A DNA stretch of 64,000 nucleotides, from assembly GCA_000442015.1 (NCBI GenBank), contig KE561265.1, forward strand, positions 124,001-188,000, given 5' to 3'. Shown piece after piece: positions 36,191-62,345 of the stretch. Numbering within the stretch: the first letter of the stretch is position 1; every line of letters begins with the position of its first letter. The stretch is from Rozella allomycis CSF55. Lineage: Eukaryota. Made by a program: the position numbers and the translations under genes. Below the pieces are notes generated by a model. The model searched no databases. It saw nothing but the letters and a program-made list of their open reading frames with translations, and was not told the origin of the DNA.

Positions 36191-38233
36191 ATGTTTGTAA
36201 ATTGTATATTGAAGAGACCAAACATTGCTAGTTTCTACAAGGCGCAATGGTACCCAATTTTCCATAGAATGCGATTCATGTCGAGTCAATCTGGGTTGAA
36301 CTATAGTGTGGATAAGATTAGAAACGTAGCCATTATAGCGCATGTTGATCATGGGAAAACAACGCTTGTTGATTGTTTGTTGCAGCAAAGTGGATGTTTA
36401 GAAAAATCGAGTCAGAGTAGAGTTATGGACTCGAACCAGTTGGAAAAGGAGAGGGGCATTACAATTCTGTCGAAATGCACATCTATTCATAGGGGAGATT
36501 ATCATATTAATATTGTGGATACGCCTGGACATGCAGACTTTGGTGGTGAAGTTGAAAGAGTGTTATCGTTGGTTGATGGTGTCATTCTTGTTGTTGATGC
36601 GACTGATGGTAAATATGTTTTTGCTTCGTTATAGGTCCAATGACGCAGACGAGGTTTGTGTTGCATAAAGCATTGTTGCAAGGATTGCTACCGATTGTTG
36701 TTCAAAACAAGGTTGATAGAGAGACAGCTAGATGTTCTGAAGTTGATGATTTAATTCTTGATTTGTTTATGAAGCTGAATGCAAATGATGATCAATTGAT
36801 GTATCCAACGTTGTATGCATCGGCAAAGGAGGGATGGGCAGTCAAGGACATTAAGAAGGATGAAAGAAAAGATATGAATCCATTGTATGATACGATAATA
36901 GAGCATATTAAACCACCGATTGTTGATTTGAATGATAAATTTTCGTTTCTGGTGAATAATTTGGAGCATGACACGCATTTGGGGAGACTTCAGACTGGAA
37001 GGATTCAATCTGGGAGTGTTAAAGTCGGAGATGTTGTGAAAGCATTGAAAGAAAATGGAGAGTCAATTTGTCAATCTAAAATATCTAAAATATTTCTTAA
37101 AAGAGGATTGGAAAAGATTTCAATTCCAGCTGCATTTGCTGGCGACATTGTGACGTTGGCGGGGATTCCATTAGCTTCAATAAATAACACAATTTGTAAC
37201 GTTGAGGTTAATCAACCATTGAAAGCAATTCCAATTGACCCTCCAACGCTTTCAATAAAGTTTGTTGTTAATGATTCACCATTGAAGAATAAAGAAGGAA
37301 GAGCGATTCCATTTGATGTTTTAAAAGAAAGATTGATGAAAGAAGCAGAAGTTAACGTTGCTATTAACGTGTAAGATGAATTTAAAGAGATTTTAAAGTG
37401 GAGAAATTGTTGAAGGGAATTCAATTGAAATTCAAGGCAGAGGAGAATTGCAAATGGGAATTTTGATTGAAACGATGAGAAGAGAAGGAATGGAATTCGC
37501 TGTTTGTCCTCCTTCAGTTATGTTGAAAAAAGATGAAAAGAATCCAGGAAAGTTTTTAGAGCCAATTGAAGAAGCAATTTTTATTGTTCCAGCAGAGTAC
37601 ATGGGTTCTTTACTAGATAAGATTTCTAAACGATCAGCAGAAATTATTGAAATGAATGAACTGGACGATAAAATGCAAATTATATCTCACATGCCAACAA
37701 GAGCACTCGTAATCAACTATTCTATTTCTTTCTAGATTGGATTTCTCAGTGAATTTAAAAATGACACAAAAGGAAACGGATCTGTTGAAAGATCTTTTCT
37801 AGAATATCAAAGTTACAAGGGTACCAATCCATCAAATTGTTAACTAGGAACAATCATGTCCAGTAGAGATGGTGTCTGTGTTTCCACTTCTAGCGGTGTT
37901 GTTACAGACTATGGCATGAAAGACATTGAAGAAAGAGGAAGAACTTTTGTTCATCCTGGCGTTCAAATTTATCCAGGAGTCATTCTCTCAGACAACAATG
38001 AAACACACGACATTCTCTACAATCCTTGCAAAGAAGTTCATTTTCAATCAAAGAGCTTCTCCTACGTCTTCAAAGGAACTCCATTACCCCTTGAACAGTT
38101 TCTTGCTTTAATGAAAAATGATGAAATGCTTGAAATCACTCCAAAGTCTCTTCGTTTAAGAAAAAAGACTCTCGATGCAAATGCTAGAAAAATAGAACAG
38201 AAAAGACAAGAACAATTAAATCGCAGTCTTTAA
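36191..38233 (+). CDS. typA: TypA/BipA-like translational GTPase, probably mitochondrial
   Basis: [69 protein letters not shown]; basic N-terminal extension; four short introns. Confidence 0.92.
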
Positions 38234-40575: not shown

Positions 40576-41031
40576 ATGCAGGAAGGGCTTCATGATGACC
40601 CTCTAACACTTATGTACACCAATACGGAGAGTAAAGTATTATTTATGGTAGTATATTGAGTATATAGAACTTTTTGAAGAACTATTTTCTCTGACCTTTT
40701 CCCAAGTTGAGTACAAGCTGCCATTGTACAATAAACAACAAAAGCTGATTCCCGCGAGTAATCAAAAATTTTGATTTATTTGAGCATCGGACGAAAACAT
40801 GAAAACTAAGATCAACGAGAAGATTCAAGACATTCTAAATGCAAAAGATAATTTTGAGACCAACATTGATTCAATTTTCTGCTTATCTGTAAACAGGAAA
40901 AAAATATACTAATTTAAGAATATAAATTATGAAAATAATCAAGTTATGTACACTGAATACGTAAGAACGCTACAGGAAGGAATCCATGAATTGGAGGCTG
41001 AATTAAACAATATTTCCAACTGTTTGAAGTA
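40576..41031 (+). CDS. Small multi-exon helical hypothetical protein (weak Med21-like look)
   Basis: Open frame recovered with three 25-30 nt introns: MQEGLHDDPLTLMY...DILNAKDNFETNIDSI...LEAELNNISNCLK*. Confidence 0.45.
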
Positions 41032-44119: not shown

Positions 44120-44370
44120 ATTTCATGAACCTTCGTGGAAAACGAATTTTTTACTATATTCATGAAGCTTTCAAAAGAAATTTGTGGAGAACCAGGTCAT
44201 AGCCTTGATCAATTCTGAAAATTTAATTAATAAATAAAAAATGTTGATATATTTTTTAAAAAAAGTTAAATTTTCTGAGCAGATCAAGACAATGACCTGA
44301 TTCTCTGACAAATTTCTTGAAGGCTTTATGAATATAGTACAAATTCGTTTTCCACGAAGGTTCATGAAAT
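44120..44370. repeat. Imperfect inverted repeat (~108-bp arms, AT-rich spacer)
   Basis: ATTTCATGAACCTTCGTGGAAAACGAATTT... at 44120 is the reverse complement of ...AAATTCGTTTTCCACGAAGGTTCATGAAAT ending at 44370; similarity continues inward with mismatches. Confidence 0.92.
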
Positions 44371-49519: not shown

Positions 49520-51659
49520 TTAAGGTTTTGTAGTAGTCAAGTGAAATATGAAGCTTGAAATCATTGCGGCTAAGAAGGCAATTACCAAAATGACTGGACC
49601 AACCCGGTCATCATAGGGACCTGGATGTCTAGTTCTTATTCTATGTGCTCTCCATTGATAAAGAAACAATGCGTAAAGAGCAAACAAGACAGCTACTGAA
49701 ATAAATAAATAGGCGGAGAATGTTGCTGTTGGATTATTGGGAAGCGACAAAAAGACAGAAGCTGTCCCACCCAAAAAGATGGAAAATTGAACCCAGGAAA
49801 GGAATGTTCTTTCATTTGCGAAAAACACTTTGGGTTCGACACGTACAGGAACGGCAATCTTCTTTCCATTCTTCTGATCGTTTACAGGCTTTCTCTTTGT
49901 GGTAAAGATAGAGAAAATTGACGAGGCTTGATGCTTCCTTGAAAGACCCAAGAGTGGTTTTTCTTCATCGGATTCGTCTTCAGCATCTTCCTTTGGCATT
50001 TCAATAGTGACATCCTTGTGATTTTTAGATAGTCGTTTAGTGACAGATATGTCTCTATTGATTGCTTCTTCAATTGGTCTTCTTTTTTCTTTCTCTATTT
50101 CCCGGGCGGTTTCATCAACCATTTGAGCCGGCTGCTTTCTAATGTCAACGTCCATTTGAGGAAGCCAAAATGGAAATAAAGTAACTTTGTGCTCAAGCAA
50201 TGTACTGCAACCATGAATAAATTTAGAAAACTTTGGGACCTCCTCGACCTTGAAGAAATTGGAAAATGAAATTTACTAAATGACCCTGGACTAAATCCTG
50301 AACCCATTTCGGTGGTTCTTGACCCATTTGAGTTTGTAGTTTAACTTCCAGTATTGCATATGGAAACCTAACTATTTCATCAGATGGAAGATTATTGAAT
50401 GGATATTCACAAAGCACATCCGGCCTTCTCCAATTTCCTTGGTTTCTTGGAGGGTCCTCACGTATCATTGAAAGTTCAGTATCAAGTGAAATTCTTACCC
50501 TTGCGTCTCCCGGCAGTTGAAATGCAGTACGATTGTAGAATGTTCTTACAGCTGGCTTTAACTTTTTCTCAAGAACGACGTTTTGAATCTCTCTTGATAG
50601 AGTCATCATTGCTTCCAACTCTTCGTCACTTTTAGATTTTTTGTCTCTCATTTTTTCAACACTTTTGTCTAATGTGTAAGCGCCGCTCAAAAAATCATTG
50701 ACATGTTTTTCTTTTAACACAAACCTCGACTTGACGCTTGTTTCACCCGTCCAATCTTCTCTATGAGTTTTTCTTTCTACAAACACTTCTTGTGGTTCAT
50801 CGCTTCCATACCAGCGTAATCTTAAAGCGATTGCACCTTCAGTCTTTTCCAAACGTCCAGTGTAAAGTTCCATGTCATCGTTATCATAATAAACGGATGA
50901 AATTGCTGGATCTGGAGTGGTTTTCTTCTTGTCAAACACAAGGATTGGTAGATGCTTCATAATATAGAATTTTAGTTCCGTCACATTGTCAGGATGAACC
51001 CAATACTTTGTTGTCTCATTTTACCTCTTACATTAAATTACCTTTCTTACAAAGTTTTGAGCAGATCCTGCAGCATCATTCGATACATCCTCTCTTTGCC
51101 CACCTATAAAATCAACAACAAAGAAGTACCATTCCTAATCACATCGTAGAGTTTAGATAATCTTAAGATCAGATTGTCTAAATTCTCTAAATACAAAGGC
51201 CTTGAATTTAATCTAACCATAAACATTGGTTTAAGCATGTAAGCTGTATATTTGTCATGTTTTTTCAATATCTTTATAAAACCAGTGTAGTTCAGTCTTG
51301 TAAAGTTTGCCAATTCCATCAATTCTAACGTTATCCTCTCAATTTCTTTCTGAAGCTCATTAATGACATCATTATCACCTAAATGTGCGTGTACACGTTT
51401 CTCCACGTCTTGAACATGCCTTGTCAATTCTCCTCCTTTGACATCACGAAAGTCAAAGACCTAATGTCAAACTATACAAAGAATTTACTTTTTCCAACTC
51501 TTTCTCCAGTGCCTGAACAAAGGCAGCTTCGTCACCATCACTAAAATATGCACTCTTAGCAGTTCTTTCTTTCAAAATCGACTTTAGATAGTCATAGTCC
51601 ATATAATGAAAACGCCATTCGGGATATCTTTTGCTTTTAATCTGCTCTCCAAACTTCAT
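49520..51659 (-). CDS. VTC4: Vacuolar polyphosphate polymerase VTC4 (SPX-VTC-DUF202)
   Basis: [69 protein letters not shown]. Confidence 0.96.
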
Positions 51660-52099
51660 TATACGACCCCGGTTAATTAACCAGCCAATTAAAACCGAAA
51701 TTGTTATAGATCAATAAAGCCTTCTTAATTATCTTTAAGTACAATTTCTCATTCGACTCTTTGTATACTTCTGCTGATGACTTAGTATCTATATTCTTTG
51801 GCTATTCGTCTAAACTTTGAATATTGTTTTATTCCCTTTATTGCACCGAGACTCACAAGTAAAAACACATTTAACCCTGCTTCTACATTTTGGATTCTCA
51901 ATATAATGATTGTGAATTCTAAGCCCAGAACAAAAATGTGAACTATTGATTTGAAAGTTTTTTAAACCAGAAAGTTTGAAACCATCTTTATTACAATGTT
52001 TTAAGATTAATTACAATAATCATATCTCATTATATACAGATGATCTAAAATTTTTCATTAGTATATTTAATTCACCAATTACTGAGCCACGTCTTTATA

Positions 52100-53653
52100 A
52101 TGAGTCGATTTGTTAGAGCTTCAAAGTTTCGTCATGTATTTGGAACGGCAAATAAAAGAGAAGCATGCTATGATGATGTAAGAGTATCCCGAACAGCAAT
52201 AGACTCTAACATTGTCAAAGTGAACACTCGTTTCATGTCTGTAAACTGGGAGATAGCAGGAGGTAAATCACATTTCCTTTTATAAAAGGCGGCGCATTTT
52301 GTGTTTGGCCTTTAGAAAAGCCAGGTCGCCTTCCCGTTGATGTACCACTCTACGTTGGTCACACCAATACAGTACTAGATACCGACTTTAATCCTTTCAA
52401 TGAATATGTAATAGCTTCATGTTCGGAAGACTGCACTGTTATGGTTTGGAATATTCCTGAAGGTTGAAAACATGATTGCAACTAATTTAGGTGGACTTAC
52501 TGAGAATTGCTCAACACCTGCCTTAACACTTTCAGGTCATGGCCGAAAGGTGAATAATGTATTGTTTCATCCGACTGCAGAAAATGTGTTAGCATCGTCT
52601 TCTTTTGACCTTACAGGTAATTGAAGATCTTTATTGAAAGTAGTTAAATTATGGGATATCGAAAAAGGGCAGCAAAAGGTGGAGTTGGTGGGGCATTTAG
52701 AATTTGTTCAGAGCATGTCTTGGAACTGGACGGGAAGTTTGCTCGCAACCACGTCAAAGGATAAGAAGCTCAGGATCTTTGATGTTAGATCTGCCAAGAT
52801 GGTCCAAGAAGTGGAAGCCCACCCAGGTGTTAAAGGTTCAAGATGTGTCTGGTTAGGAGACAGTGATAGAATTGCCACCACCGGCTTTTCAAAGACTTCA
52901 GATAGGCAATTGGCAATTTGGGACTATAACAATTTGACAAATCCTTTGAAGCTTGAAAATCTTGACACCTCTTCCGGAGTAATAATGCCATTTTATGACA
53001 ATGATACAAATTTACTATTTTTGGCGGGGAAAGTAATTGCTCCCATATGAATTTACAAGGGCGATGGCAATATAAGATATTTTGAAGTTGTTAATGATGA
53101 TCCATTTATTTACTACGTAAGCGAATATAAAAGCTCAGAGCCTCAAAGAGGCCTCGGCTTTCTGCCGAAAAGAGGCGTTAATGTCAACGAGATCGAAGTT
53201 TGCAGGGCGTTCAAAGTGAACACCAATATGATTGAACCTATTTCCTTTAAAGTTCCTAGAAAAGTAACTTTTTTGGTTTACTTTGATATAGTCTGATTCT
53301 TTTCAAGCAGATCTTTTTCCAGACACAATTGGTGACAAAGCTCCTCTCACAGCTGACGAATTTTTTGATGGGAAAGATGCCAAACCTATTCTCATTTCAT
53401 TAGAGAAAGGGTAAATTTATGTTGTGGCTTTTATAGATTTGTTCCCTCTGAAAAGAAAGAGTTCGTTTCTCAAACTGTCACAAAGTCTCCGTCAATCGAG
53501 TTGGAAGCCATGAAGATTATGTCGGACAAAGAAGTCAGAGAAGCGTTCCATCAGCAACGCAAGGAGATTGAGGAACTCAAAAATCAAATAGCACAAAAAG
53601 ACGTGACAATTCGTCAACTTGAAATTCAACTTGAGGCAGCAAAAAACAAATAA
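52100..53653 (+). CDS. CRN1: Coronin
   Basis: [77 protein letters not shown]-terminal coiled coil. Confidence 0.96.
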
Positions 53654-53710
53654 ATAAATATATTTTTTCAAAGGGGTGTTTTATTTAAGTTTGTGAAAGC
53701 CAAAATACGT

Positions 53711-53851
53711 CTACGGTTAGAAATGTTCAAGTAAAATGTTAAAATAGCAAAAATGTCAGAAGGAAGGCAACATAGCTGTCCATCACGCGTCAGAACAGGT
53801 CTGAAGTTAATCATCATAAAAAAAGTAAAGGAAAAATGTTCAAATACTTAC
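53711..53851 (-). other. 141-nt intron of a putative non-coding snoRNA host transcript
   Basis: 5' GTAAGT, CTAAC branch point and TAG end; no ATG/ORF in the short flanking exons; AATAAA downstream. Confidence 0.72.
53756..53817 (-). ncRNA. Box C/D snoRNA with two 18S rRNA guides (yeast Gm1428 and Am420 equivalents)
   Basis: Minus strand: C ATGATGA, guide CAGACCTGTT, D' CTGA, C' GTGATGG, guide TGTTGCCTTCCTT, D CTGA; the guides are antisense to conserved SSU rRNA AACAGGUCUG and AAGGAAGGCAGCA. Confidence 0.9.
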
Positions 53852-53920
53852 AGTTGTTTTTATGACAGGGGTTGTGCGATTGTTTTTCAGTTTTTATAGT
53901 GTGAAAAATGAAATTTACGA

Positions 53921-55451
53921 ATGCCAAAACCAAAAATTCTTTTTATTTTAATCGATGGATTGGGTGATGTTGGAATAAAGTCTAAAGATTTTCAAACACC
54001 ACTTCAATTGGCTTCCACATCTCACTTGGACCTTTTGTCAAGTACATCATTTATTGATTTGTAATAGAATATGGGCTAAATGGAATGATAGATCCTGTCG
54101 ATGTAGGTTTGGCCTGCGGATCAGATACAGCCCATTTAAGTCTTTTCGGCTATGATTCAAGACAAGTCTACAGAGGCAGAGGTGCATTTGAGGCTATGGG
54201 GGCTGGGCTAGATTTACAACCCGGAGACATAGCATTCAAAGTATTTCATCTTAATAGAATTTAAAAGAGCAATTTTGCTATTATTGATGATTCGTCCAAT
54301 ATAGTGATTAGCAGGAGAGCCGATAGAAATTTTGAACATTCTGGTCCCGTTTTCTGCAAAGATATTGATAACAAGTACATAATATATTTGTAATAACAAC
54401 TGAATAATTGATTTGAACGGAGAAAAGATACAGATTAATTGCAAATACGCAACTGAACACCGATGCGGTATTCGGATAAGAGGGGAGTTTGCATTGTCTG
54501 ATCAAATCACTGGAACTGATCCATTAAAAGACAAGTAAATTATAAAGATTCGTGTTATAGTCGATTACTGTTGAAGTCTGAACCATTGAGCCATGATGAC
54601 GAGGTTGCAGTCAGAACCAGTCAGGTAGTCGAATCTTTTTGATTTAATAGATCGTTAATAAAGTTTCTGATGAATTAAGAGAATTATTAAAACAACACCC
54701 AGAAAACGAACGAAGAAATCTAAAAGGGATGACGCAAACGAATGTGGTACTCTTGCGAGGTGCAGGTGGTTTACTGGAGGTAATAATAAAATTCTTCTTC
54801 AATCTATCAGATTCCATCCTTTATTTCAAAAACTTCACTAAAGGGTTTCATGATTGCGCCAACTTGCATTATAGCCGGGCTAGGGAAATGCATTGGTCTA
54901 GGTATTACACATCTTCTTTTCTTCTTTAGATGTTATTAATGTGCAAGGTGCAACTGGTGACTATAAAACAAATCTAATTGCCAAGGCAAACGCTGCAATT
55001 CAAATCATTTCTGGTAAGTAACGAAAATAATGGTGATAAGAAAGTTACGATTTTGGTTTCCTACATATTAAAAGTGTCGATGACGCTGGGCATGATAGAA
55101 ACATAGATTTAAAAATTTCATGGATTGAAAAGGTCGACCAAATGATTTCAAGAATAATTGATCAGGCCAAGGCAGTAGAATGTCTTGAGAATGTAATTAG
55201 TGAAATTTTAAGGTTATTAGCTTTGGATTATAGTTACTGGAGATCATTCTACACCTGTTGAATATGGTGATCATAGTTGCGAGCCTGTGCCATTTGTTCT
55301 CTGCAAATTGCGAAATATTTTAAAGGATGACAAAACATTGGCTGATGATGTTCAGCGTTTTAATGAAATATGTTCATCTAAAGGGGCATTAGGCAGATTT
55401 TCCGGTTTTGAAATTATGAATAGCATACTTCCCATCATTATGAATGAATAA
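53921..55451 (+). CDS. apgM: Cofactor-independent phosphoglycerate mutase, archaeal-type (ApgM / alkaline phosphatase superfamily); ~10 introns
   Basis: ILIDGLGD, ACGSDTAHLSLFGYD, YRGRGAFEAMGAG, TEHRCG, FLHIKSVDDAGHD, VTGDHSTPV. Confidence 0.9.
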
Positions 55452-55540
55452 ACTCAATTTTAACTTGCGAACTTTATCCAACATTCATTGAATTTATTTT
55501 GAAGTTCAATTCAGCTTTTAAGCGTTTCTCAAATTTCCTT

Positions 55541-56388
55541 ATGCGATTACCAATTCGGTTTCCTCAATTACACACTAATATATTGAAATCAAACATATTT
55601 GTATATAATTATAGTGCTACGTAATGTTCATCAAATAAAACAATCAAGTCCATATATCGTGGAGAGACGCAATGATACTTACACTCAAAGACGACTCAAA
55701 AAGCAATTCAGGGCCAGAAGTGCTTTTAAGCTTTCGGAAATGCATGAAATGAGTCCCTTAATTAATCCAGGAGATGCAGTTGTAAATTGTTTAGTGTTTT
55801 GAATGATGTAGTTGGATTTAGGATGTGCACCGGGATCATGGTGTCAAGTTGCCGAAGAATTGGTTGGACCTAAAGGAATTGTAGTCGGAGTAGATAGAGT
55901 TTGTAATTGGAATTGATTTTTTAAAAAAGACGTTCCTCCCTTAACATTAACAAGGTTCATTGTAGGAGATGCAACTCTACCCAGTATTCAAAAATCAATT
56001 AGGGAGCAATTAATTGAAAAGGAATACTTTGACGTTGTTCTGAGGTAATCATTAATGGTATTATTGACAGCGATATGTGTCCAAATCTGATAGGCATAAA
56101 GAGTGCAGATCATCAAGCCAGTCTAAATATTGTAAATGAGGCACTGAAAATAGCACATGGCATGTTGAAAGAAAATGGCACTCTCCTCGTGAAATTGTTT
56201 TTGTCTGGCCATGAGCGATGTAACAAGTCTCTTAACCTAAAATAGTCGTTAAAAGCAAATTGGAAGAAATTTTCAAAAAGGTTAAAATTGTTAAACCGCC
56301 GGCATCAAAAAAGGAGTCGGCTGAAATTTACATCCGTGCAGAAAAGTTCCATCCATTGAATAGAAAATACCCACTTTCGTTGATATAA
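55541..56388 (+). CDS. MRM2: FtsJ/RlmE-type rRNA 2'-O-methyltransferase, mitochondrial type
   Basis: [46 protein letters not shown]. Confidence 0.88.
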
Positions 56389-61344: not shown

Positions 61345-62345
61345 TTAAACCTTGCTTTCCCCTTTGATATCAAAGGTCTGTTCCGGCGTTAAATAAAATA
61401 AAGCAAGGCCAGCCAAAACCAAGGAAAAGGATCCAAAATACCAATACTCCAGCTAATTTAAAAATAAATTTGAAGATACTTTTTGGTTAAACAAGATCAT
61501 GTAGCCTATGAGGGTGTAAATGTATGTTGTCAACAAAGACAAGTTTAAAGCGGTCGCTGATGTATGTAGTATTACAAAAGGAACTAAAGAGTAAAAAACG
61601 AATATAGCTAAAGCATAAAAAGCAAGAAAAGTAGCATTTGAAGAATCCATTTGCGTTATTTTATGATACTCCAAAGCAAAACTACTCGACGTGAAATGAA
61701 AAACTTACCTCTGCGAGATTCCAAAAATTAATCCAAAAGCGCTAAGGAGCCCCAAATATTCGTACGAGCCCACATAATTTAAAAGGTACTCTTGAACTGT
61801 GTTGGCTAAGGCATACAAAAAGGCACCGCCAACAGCTAAAAGCATACCTTTCATATAAGAGGAACCTATTATATTAATAGATAATTTTTACTTTGTAAGT
61901 CATTTGCTGGTTGATTGGTTTGAACTATGAGGAAAATCAAACCTAACAAACAAAAGATTACGCCTATAAAATGTTGTTTTCGATATTTAGTCTTGAAAAA
62001 TATAACACTCATTATCATTGCAAATGGCACAGTCATGCTGTTGGCTAGAACGATGCTAGTCACGCTGGCATATTCAAATGATGTTACAATAAGAAAGTTT
62101 GCTTCCAAATCAATAATCGCATTCAGAATTATTAATGCCAATATTTTTCCCGTGACAACTTTTTTAATGTTTCTATAATTGAATGGAAAATACGCTAAGA
62201 AGATTAGAAAATAGCAAATTGTTGCTTGAAAGGCGGGTTTTACGAGTCCTGCATCAAAGTATTCATTCAATAGATTTGTAGTAGTCAAGCAAAGAGATAA
62301 AAGTTGGCCTAGCGCAAAAATCAACAGTCGAAGTGAACCAAACAT
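61345..62345 (-). CDS. SLC35F1/F2-like (DUF914) DMT transporter
   Basis: LGQLLSLCL, IDLEANFLIV, GAFLYALANTVQEY, SATALNLSLLT. Confidence 0.88.

Follow-up and report, generated by a model that had tools for sequence, protein, structure and literature searches.

What does the 267-bp gap between the coronin gene and an ApgM-type phosphoglycerate mutase gene of Rozella allomycis CSF55 produce? The gap lies at positions 53,654 to 53,920 of the 64,000-nucleotide stretch that we analysed, hereafter the window (assembly GCA_000442015.1, contig KE561265.1, positions 124,001 to 188,000). Both neighbours are encoded on the plus strand; the stop codon of coronin is at 53653, and the ATG of ApgM is at 53921. 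A coronin exon of 130 residues is 100% identical to a protein assigned to R. allomycis CSF55 by NCBI and UniRef, and the next-best matches reach 80% identity at most. On its minus strand, the gap holds a candidate small nucleolar RNA (snoRNA), a candidate intron around it and the exons of a putative miniature host. An initial annotation had recognised the two flanking genes correctly and had read the minus strand as a dual-guide box C/D snoRNA carried in a long intron of a non-coding host; every sequence element that it quoted was found where it had been placed. We consider it very likely that the box C/D snoRNA is real. Its release from a spliced intron of a non-coding mini-host is, in our judgement, probable. 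All positions are those of the window, and the features of the snoRNA, the intron and the host are on the minus strand.

Boxes, guides and family of the snoRNA

The candidate snoRNA occupies 53752..53822 and would be about 66-70 nt long; its ends are estimates, and the Rfam matches run over 53754-53821. Box C (ATGATGA, 53811..53817) fits RUGAUGA and stands near the 5' end, and box D (CTGA, 53756..53759; CUGA in the RNA) stands near the 3' end, as in the box C/D class. The internal boxes are also present: D' (CTGA, 53790..53793) is followed, after a 3-nt linker (cgc, between 53790 and 53786), by C' (GTGATGG, 53780..53786), and this spacing of 3 nt corresponds to the K-loop geometry. Across 53756-53817 the C, D' and D boxes are perfect and C' is near-perfect, differing from UGAUGA once. 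Guide 1, upstream of D', is a 17-nt spacer (53794..53810) with the pairing core CAGACCTGTT at 53803-53794. Guide 2, upstream of D, is a 20-nt spacer (53760..53779) with the pairing core TGTTGCCTTCCTT at 53772-53760.

We searched the window for the box pattern (C box, 10-25 nt, CTGA, 2-12 nt, TGATG) and found it twice, where 100 shuffles predict 0.04 occurrences. Apart from the snoRNA, the pattern matched at 36744-36790, inside a coding exon of a GTPase gene. A crude scan for C...D pairs in the non-coding gaps of the window gave two candidates, one of them the snoRNA locus; the second (40592-40694) overlaps a mini-intron of a coding region. Both of these additional matches were rejected.

The initial annotation had assigned guide 1 to the site of yeast Gm1428 in 18S rRNA and guide 2, with one G-U pair, to the site of yeast Am420. 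We measured the pairing on eukaryotic 18S fragments from other organisms, which were found in IMG/VR viral contigs by means of two short 18S motifs. The 16-nt universal 18S primer occurred at 21 IMG/VR loci, 2 of which had the longer tract, and L018 alone was small-subunit (SSU) rRNA according to Rfam. The second 18S tract occurred at 5 loci, and L034 alone was SSU rRNA. The loci L030-L033, which share a different, non-rRNA context, were left uncounted as 18S. Both accepted fragments were recognised as eukaryotic SSU rRNA by the Rfam model RF01960, L018 as the 3' half and L034 as a 5' part of the molecule.

On L018, guide 1 forms 10 uninterrupted Watson-Crick pairs starting from the nucleotide that abuts D', and its fifth nucleotide (C53798) is opposite the expected G, that of AACAG. 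On L034, guide 2 forms 13 pairs, including one G-U, from the nucleotide that abuts D, and its fifth nucleotide (T53764) is opposite the expected A, that of AAGGA. The 18S of other organisms is therefore complementary to the RNA over at least 10 nt abutting D' and D, with a known methylated nucleotide opposite the fifth position, as in the box C/D class. Register and pairing agree with both assignments: the D' guide is predicted to target the G of AACAGGUCUG (yeast Gm1428) and the D guide the A of AAGGAAGG (yeast Am420), where methylation would take place.

The two fragments are an observation in their own right, since they place eukaryotic SSU rRNA in contigs filed as viral. The RF01960 matches cover 3632-4543 in L018 (534.5 bits) and 15-1360 in L034 (505.8 bits). 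The match in L018 spans model positions 1-1831 across 912 nt; inspection by eye recognises just the 3' half of 18S there.

In the tables of PMC3511168 and PMC8817022, yeast Gm1428 corresponds to human Gm1490 and is assigned to snR56, human U25 and plant snoR19. Yeast Am420 is the site of snR52 and of human U83, with which Table 1 of PMC2780460 equates the Neurospora crassa snoRNA CD42 (18S-Am417). Since a Dictyostelium table pairs U16 with yeast Am436 (PMC8817022), the Am420 equivalent is not the U16 site.

In a 1-kb Rfam search, positions 53754-53821 matched snR56 best (37.7 bits, E = 0.0022), followed by snR61/Z1 (23.3 bits), Z13/snR52 (22.2 bits), snR52 (21.8 bits), DdR1 (16.6 bits), U83B (14.6 bits) and sR42 (11.6 bits). 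Save for snR61/Z1 and sR42, these families guide exactly the Gm1428 and Am420 sites. In the Rfam alignments both guides of the window stand in the register of the family consensus relative to D' and D: guide 1 coincides with the guides of snR56, DdR1 and RF00335, and guide 2 with the guide of snR52 and Z13. The Infernal/Rfam check that had been suggested for this locus thus returned families for both named sites, but all of the scores were sub-gathering. For RF00335 (snoZ13_snr52) the 22.2 bits (E = 0.29 in the 1-kb search) compare with a gathering score of 47, and for RF01188 (snR56, in clan CL00049 with U25) the 37.7 bits compare with 54. At the level of the guides, the Rozella RNA has the same two antisense elements as RF00335 in the same D'/D register, and it shares with RF01188 the D' guide CAGACCUGU directly before CUGA. 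The copy of the D' guide in the RF00335 consensus is partly degenerate. As a side observation, a tract rich in U precedes box D in the RF01188 consensus (UAUUGCCuUUUuUUu-CUGA). This tract is similar to the Am420 guide and has the appearance of a second guide in decay, which is consistent with a dual-guide ancestor.

We then scanned metagenome contigs for both guides together and obtained 8 fungal loci (L001-L008) with 5 distinct sequences. The 5 loci that were scored reach 84.6-93.9 bits on RF00335 (gathering 47), and the remaining 3 match L002 over about 300 nt around the hit. On the snR56 model RF01188, L002 reaches 45.4 bits and likewise stays under 54. In an alignment of the window sequence with the 5 fungal RF00335 members, the columns are invariant through both guides and the boxes. 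Each of the 8 loci is enclosed by a GT donor (GTAAGT in 6; GTATGT or GTACGT in 2) and a CTRAC..AG branch site and acceptor. The exons flanking the snoRNA in L002 encode an Scd6/LSM14 protein (LSM14 domain 85.9 bits, FDF domain 74.4 bits). At 7302-9306 of L002, and also in L005, L006 and L008, the intron with the RF00335 snoRNA stands between an exon with the LSM14 domain and an exon with the FDF domain.

The dual-guide design pointed out by the initial annotation is therefore present in Rozella, but it is not special to this organism, since 8 of 8 fungal loci share the guide pair. As read from these loci, the same two guides in one RNA are the ordinary form of RF00335 in filamentous fungi, and the combination is not new. 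The clan CD_19, in which snR52 and snR56 are merged, is described as one of two double-guide clans that can be traced through all major fungal lineages, its members being joined by target switches (Canzler et al. 2018, PMC5824354). Since both the fungal form of RF00335 and CD_19 hold the two guides, the separate snR52 and snR56 of Saccharomyces cerevisiae are a derived arrangement. Although it fails the Rfam thresholds, the Rozella RNA almost certainly shares its origin with the RF00335/snR56/CD_19 lineage; it is a very compact member of this known lineage (~68 nt versus ~101 nt). The main text of PMC5824354 has no occurrence of Rozella, and the history of the clan sits in its Supplement S9. 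In the literature on R. allomycis introns and snoRNAs we found nothing on this snoRNA or on a Rozella snoRNA set; the supplements (Canzler S9, Lim Table S6) may have entries.

The candidate intron and its putative host

The snoRNA lies within a candidate spliceosomal intron of 141 nt (53711..53851). The donor GTAAGT is at 53851-53846, the branch site CTAAC at 53720-53716 and the acceptor TAG at 53713-53711, with 6 nt from the branch A to the acceptor. The donor precedes box C by 34 nt, and 45 nt separate box D from the acceptor. At the level of sequence, canonical 5' splice, branch and 3' splice sites thus surround a single snoRNA, as expected for an intron-encoded one. Counted over both strands (128 kb), there are 19 copies of GTAAGT and 31 of CTAAC with an AG within the next 12 nt. 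The product of these frequencies gives a joint chance of ~1.6e-4 for finding both signals, each in an 80-nt flank. Both signals flank a 68-nt element at 58 of 127,520 positions, all of them at the snoRNA locus. The combination GTAAGT..CTAAC..AG was also found at 61895-61956 (plus strand) and 18082-17809 (minus strand); both are antisense to long coding open reading frames (ORFs) and were dismissed as chance. GTAAGT and CTAAC..TAG at the snoRNA locus are improbable by chance, and we read them as real splice signals from which splicing is predicted.

The introns of the window were surveyed by a heuristic mini-intron census, in which ORF segments were joined where exactly one GTA...AG solution connected them in frame. 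The census yielded 95 different candidates of 24-30 nt with a mode of 27 nt, a few of which are certainly false, such as two antisense within coronin. Before the removal of one duplicate row, 24 candidates had 26 nt, 31 had 27 nt and 21 had 28 nt. The donor GTA is followed by A in 62 of the 95, and GTAAGT is found in 2. CTAAC is found in none of the 95, and 42 are without any YTRAY-like motif. The supposition that the 141-nt intron is about five times the size of the local ones, which are 24-30 nt and mostly 27 nt long, was borne out, as was the claim that its strong signals are unlike theirs. Where mini-introns have a branch-like motif, the distance from branch to acceptor is 3-7 nt, and the 6 nt of the 141-nt intron falls inside this range. 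Since the spacing is that of the local introns, it argues for one spliceosome that reads stronger signals over two mechanisms. It is mildly unusual that one genome has both ~27-nt introns with weak signals and a 141-nt intron with near-consensus U1/U2 pairing sites.

The 141-nt intron also contains 4 copies of ACATTT, against 0.12 expected. The direct repeat TTGAACATTT has 2 copies in the whole window (53843-53834 and 53730-53721), one on each side of the snoRNA. Since these are direct repeats, no stem can form between the copies of TTGAACATTT or ACATTT, which could be traces of a duplication or could serve as a signal for binding or processing.

A consensus TATA box (TATAAAAA, 53891..53898) stands 47 nt upstream of the 5' splice site and would mark the promoter of the host. 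TATAWAWR occurs 52 times in the window on both strands, which corresponds to a chance of ~0.024 per given 60-nt stretch. Putative exon 1 (53852..53868), whose 5' end was placed from the position of the TATA box, has no ATG, nor is there any on the minus strand in 53920..53852. Putative exon 2 (53660..53710), whose 3' end is also an estimate, is antisense to the 3' end of coronin. It contains AATAAA at 53685-53680, 25 nt past the acceptor, and the chance of an AATAAA placed in this way is ~0.11. We extended the spliced product to 53300 and found no usable ORF; the longest one started by ATG has 30 codons (start at 53395), and an open stretch that spans the exon junction reaches 30 codons at most, whichever the frame. 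The flanking exons are thus ORF-less, as had been claimed, and they are without coding potential like the exons of a UHG-like non-coding host. Most simply, these features are read as a unit of ~230-250 bp that diverges from ApgM, converges with coronin and would have the snoRNA as its sole product of value.

Intronic snoRNAs in spliced non-coding hosts are documented in Neurospora (PMC2780460). For the RPL7 gene, an intron position conserved in 82% of fungi is reported, together with snoRNAs in the RPL7 introns of S. cerevisiae, and R. allomycis is named as having an extra RPL7 paralog that lost the intron/snoRNA (Lim et al. 2021, PMC8476143).

In the proposed mechanism, a minimal RNA polymerase II unit consisting of the TATA box, a very short exon 1, the 141-nt intron and a short exon 2 with AATAAA would be transcribed. 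Splicing would free the lariat, which would be debranched and then trimmed by exonucleases to the core protected in the snoRNP. The spliced exons would encode nothing, as in UHG/GAS5-like hosts. In a particle with fibrillarin, Nop56/58 and Snu13, the snoRNA would guide 2'-O-methylation at two sites of 18S rRNA.

Some features of the surroundings should also be mentioned. The minus-strand TATA box is 23 nt from the start codon of ApgM, and an out-of-frame plus-strand ATG is found at ~53909. ApgM must therefore have a very short 5' untranslated region, and a promoter region of at most 70 bp must be common to both units. On the other side, coronin is adjoined by a putative SPX-domain, VTC-like gene (vacuolar transporter chaperone type, identified by eye from the translation; 50223-51710, minus strand), which is split by 26-28-nt introns, as are its neighbours. 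Farther away, a hairpin-like element of ~117 nt (44187-44306, both strands), probably a palindromic inverted repeat, was matched by two models of plant miRNA precursors, MIR5070 (35.2 and 32.9 bits, one per strand) and MIR393 (24.5 bits), in each case far under gathering.

Weighing the explanations

Several points weigh against a snoRNA released from a spliced non-coding host. There is no terminal stem beside boxes C and D, where the flanks read UUUUUU and CAUUUU and the stem columns of RF00335 are flagged as non-pairs. No stem appears in the minimum free energy or the centroid structure either, and the 141-nt intron folds no better than shuffles (z = +0.92), whereas the fungal homologues have terminal stems of 5-6 bp. 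A 9-nt inverted repeat (53865-53857 with 53822-53814) was rejected, as it is within the estimated chance expectation. The Rfam scan of the window at gathering thresholds gave no match, and every score at the locus is under gathering, with a whole-window E-value of 0.14 for snR56. The guide pairing comes from the 18S of other organisms and not from that of R. allomycis. In addition, guide 1 pairs over just 10 bp, whereas Table 1 of PMC2780460 gives 12 or 13 bp for both N. crassa guides to Gm1423. Exon 1 would have just ~15-20 nt if the TATA box were used in the usual way, and this TATA box could serve ApgM instead. The same TATA and AATAAA signals would also be needed by an independently transcribed snoRNA. 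Finally, all of the support comes from the DNA sequence, from which the splice junction, the small RNA and the methylation are predicted. One RNA dataset (X9) has no contigs over 52000-55600, which says nothing either way.

Strain variation was uninformative. Over the 267-nt gap, 6 differences were counted in X6 (53673, 53706, 53788, 53833, 53862 and 53873), 2 plus 1 insertion in X2, and a single one in X3. The sole difference within the snoRNA (53788) falls into the D'-C' linker, against an overall divergence of ~1%. In the ~1%-diverged strain the boxes, guides and splice signals are all unchanged, in numbers too small for statistical weight.

In the main rival explanation, a real snoRNA is made from a monocistronic gene of its own that is driven by the TATA box, and its unspliced precursor is trimmed by 5'-3' and 3'-5' exonucleases. 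GTAAGT and CTAAC..TAG would then be a coincidence or relics of a former intronic state. Most snoRNAs of S. cerevisiae are independent monocistronic genes. Such a gene could use the consensus TATA box, which precedes box C by 74 nt, and the AATAAA downstream, and it would need neither an extremely short exon 1 nor the predicted splicing event. There is also a precedent in N. crassa, where 9 box C/D snoRNAs are reported as independently transcribed and intergenic (PMC2780460). Nevertheless, we regard an independent gene as unlikely. It leaves the joint chance of ~1.6e-4 for the flanking splice signals to be explained, and these signals are both rare in the local introns (2/95 and 0/95) and stand in the correct branch-acceptor geometry. 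Moreover, all 8 fungal loci with the same guides are intronic, and no stem-loop for endonucleolytic 5' processing is predicted at the Rozella locus.

The intron and the snoRNA might also be part of a longer functional transcript, either as the 5' untranslated region of an unannotated minus-strand gene or as an antisense RNA that regulates coronin. For exon 2, an antisense overlap with the 3' end of coronin is unavoidable, and the 3' end of the unit was placed by AATAAA alone. However, the longest ATG-started ORF in 53710..53300 has 30 codons, and the next minus-strand gene, the SPX/VTC-like one, starts near 51700, past the entire coronin gene. With the AATAAA following 25 nt past the acceptor as well, we find a longer transcript quite improbable. 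Lastly, the motifs might have come together by chance, or belong to a dead pseudogene, with no stable RNA being made. The sub-gathering Rfam scores and the missing terminal stem would agree with this, but we give it hardly any credence. The four boxes are in the correct order and spacing, in a pattern expected 0.04 times per window. The register of the two guides is exactly that of two known families, and both guides fit conserved 18S tracts at known methylation sites. The unchanged boxes and guides in the ~1%-diverged strain add weak evidence. We therefore favour a real box C/D snoRNA that would be released by splicing from a non-coding mini-host.

Relation to known snoRNAs and introns

Rozellomycota are one of the earliest fungal branches. 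A single RNA with guides for both Gm1428 and Am420 in this group supports an old dual-guide ancestor of snR52 and snR56, which was later split or rewired in budding yeast. The locus is also a concrete test case of how a genome with 27-nt, signal-poor introns handles a 141-nt intron that has near-consensus U1/U2 sites and the local branch-acceptor spacing. Since the locus was missed at the Rfam gathering thresholds, the annotation of snoRNAs in reduced fungal genomes probably undercounts compact forms.

A survey of Encephalitozoon and Nosema reports that no SSU-targeting snoRNA was found (Belkorchia et al. 2017, PMC5499648), and Rozella, a sister lineage of Microsporidia, apparently still keeps one. 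According to Whelan et al. (2018, PMC6349667), Microsporidia have a few long, efficiently spliced introns with strong splice signals and extended branch sites, as opposed to short, poorly defined ones. The long introns hold CUGA and UGAUGA motifs, for which these authors raised a snoRNA function, and the S23 introns of R. allomycis are described there as ~30 nt long and without conserved motifs. The Rozella window resembles this picture in having a long candidate intron with strong signals against short weak ones. It differs in that the microsporidian long introns are inside the coding genes for poly-A-binding protein and S23 and, in this source, have no demonstrated guides. A tentative idea, which we consider possible but doubtful, is that Rozella has two intron classes: a mass of 26-28-nt mini-introns with weak signals, and a few long introns with consensus signals that are kept only for snoRNAs. 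The microsporidian long introns would then be degenerate survivors of the second class, and the ACAUUU repeats a lineage-specific processing or assembly signal that replaces the terminal stem. If this is true, the Rozella example sits in a non-coding host of ~240 bp that shares its promoter region with ApgM.

As for the host, UHG/GAS5-like genes of mammals and the clusters I-V of N. crassa likewise have non-coding exons and a snoRNA in an intron with canonical signals (PMC2780460). Unlike them, the Rozella unit has one snoRNA and one intron within ~230-250 bp, lies between two genes of the opposite strand and is a predicted transcription unit.

The closest counterparts of the RNA itself are the fungal RF00335 loci. 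They have both guides of Rozella, CAGACCUGU-CUGA for D' and GUUGCCUUCCUU-CUGA for D, with order and register unchanged, and they also share an intronic position with one snoRNA per intron, a GT donor and a CTRAC branch, if the candidate intron of Rozella is accepted. In contrast to them, the Rozella copy has ~68 nt instead of ~101 nt and is without the terminal and internal stems of the model. Its guide 1 pairs over 10 bp where theirs pairs over 13, and its host appears non-coding, whereas the host in L002 is the Scd6/LSM14 gene.

With snR56/U25/AtsnoR19 (RF01188, RF00054; CL00049) the Rozella RNA has in common the D' guide for the conserved 18S G (Gm1428/Gm1490). Yeast snR56 is listed as a single guide, whereas the Rozella RNA has two and scores under the 54 bits of this family. 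With S. cerevisiae snR52 (RF01195) and human U83 it shares the D guide UGUUGCCUUCCUU-CUGA for 18S Am420 in identical register. Its score on RF01195 is 21.8 bits against a gathering score of 45, and the D' guide of yeast snR52 itself targets 25S Um2921 and not 18S Gm1428, as tabulated in PMC3511168. The clan CD_19, as described in the main text of PMC5824354, accommodates the Rozella RNA as a single molecule with both targets.

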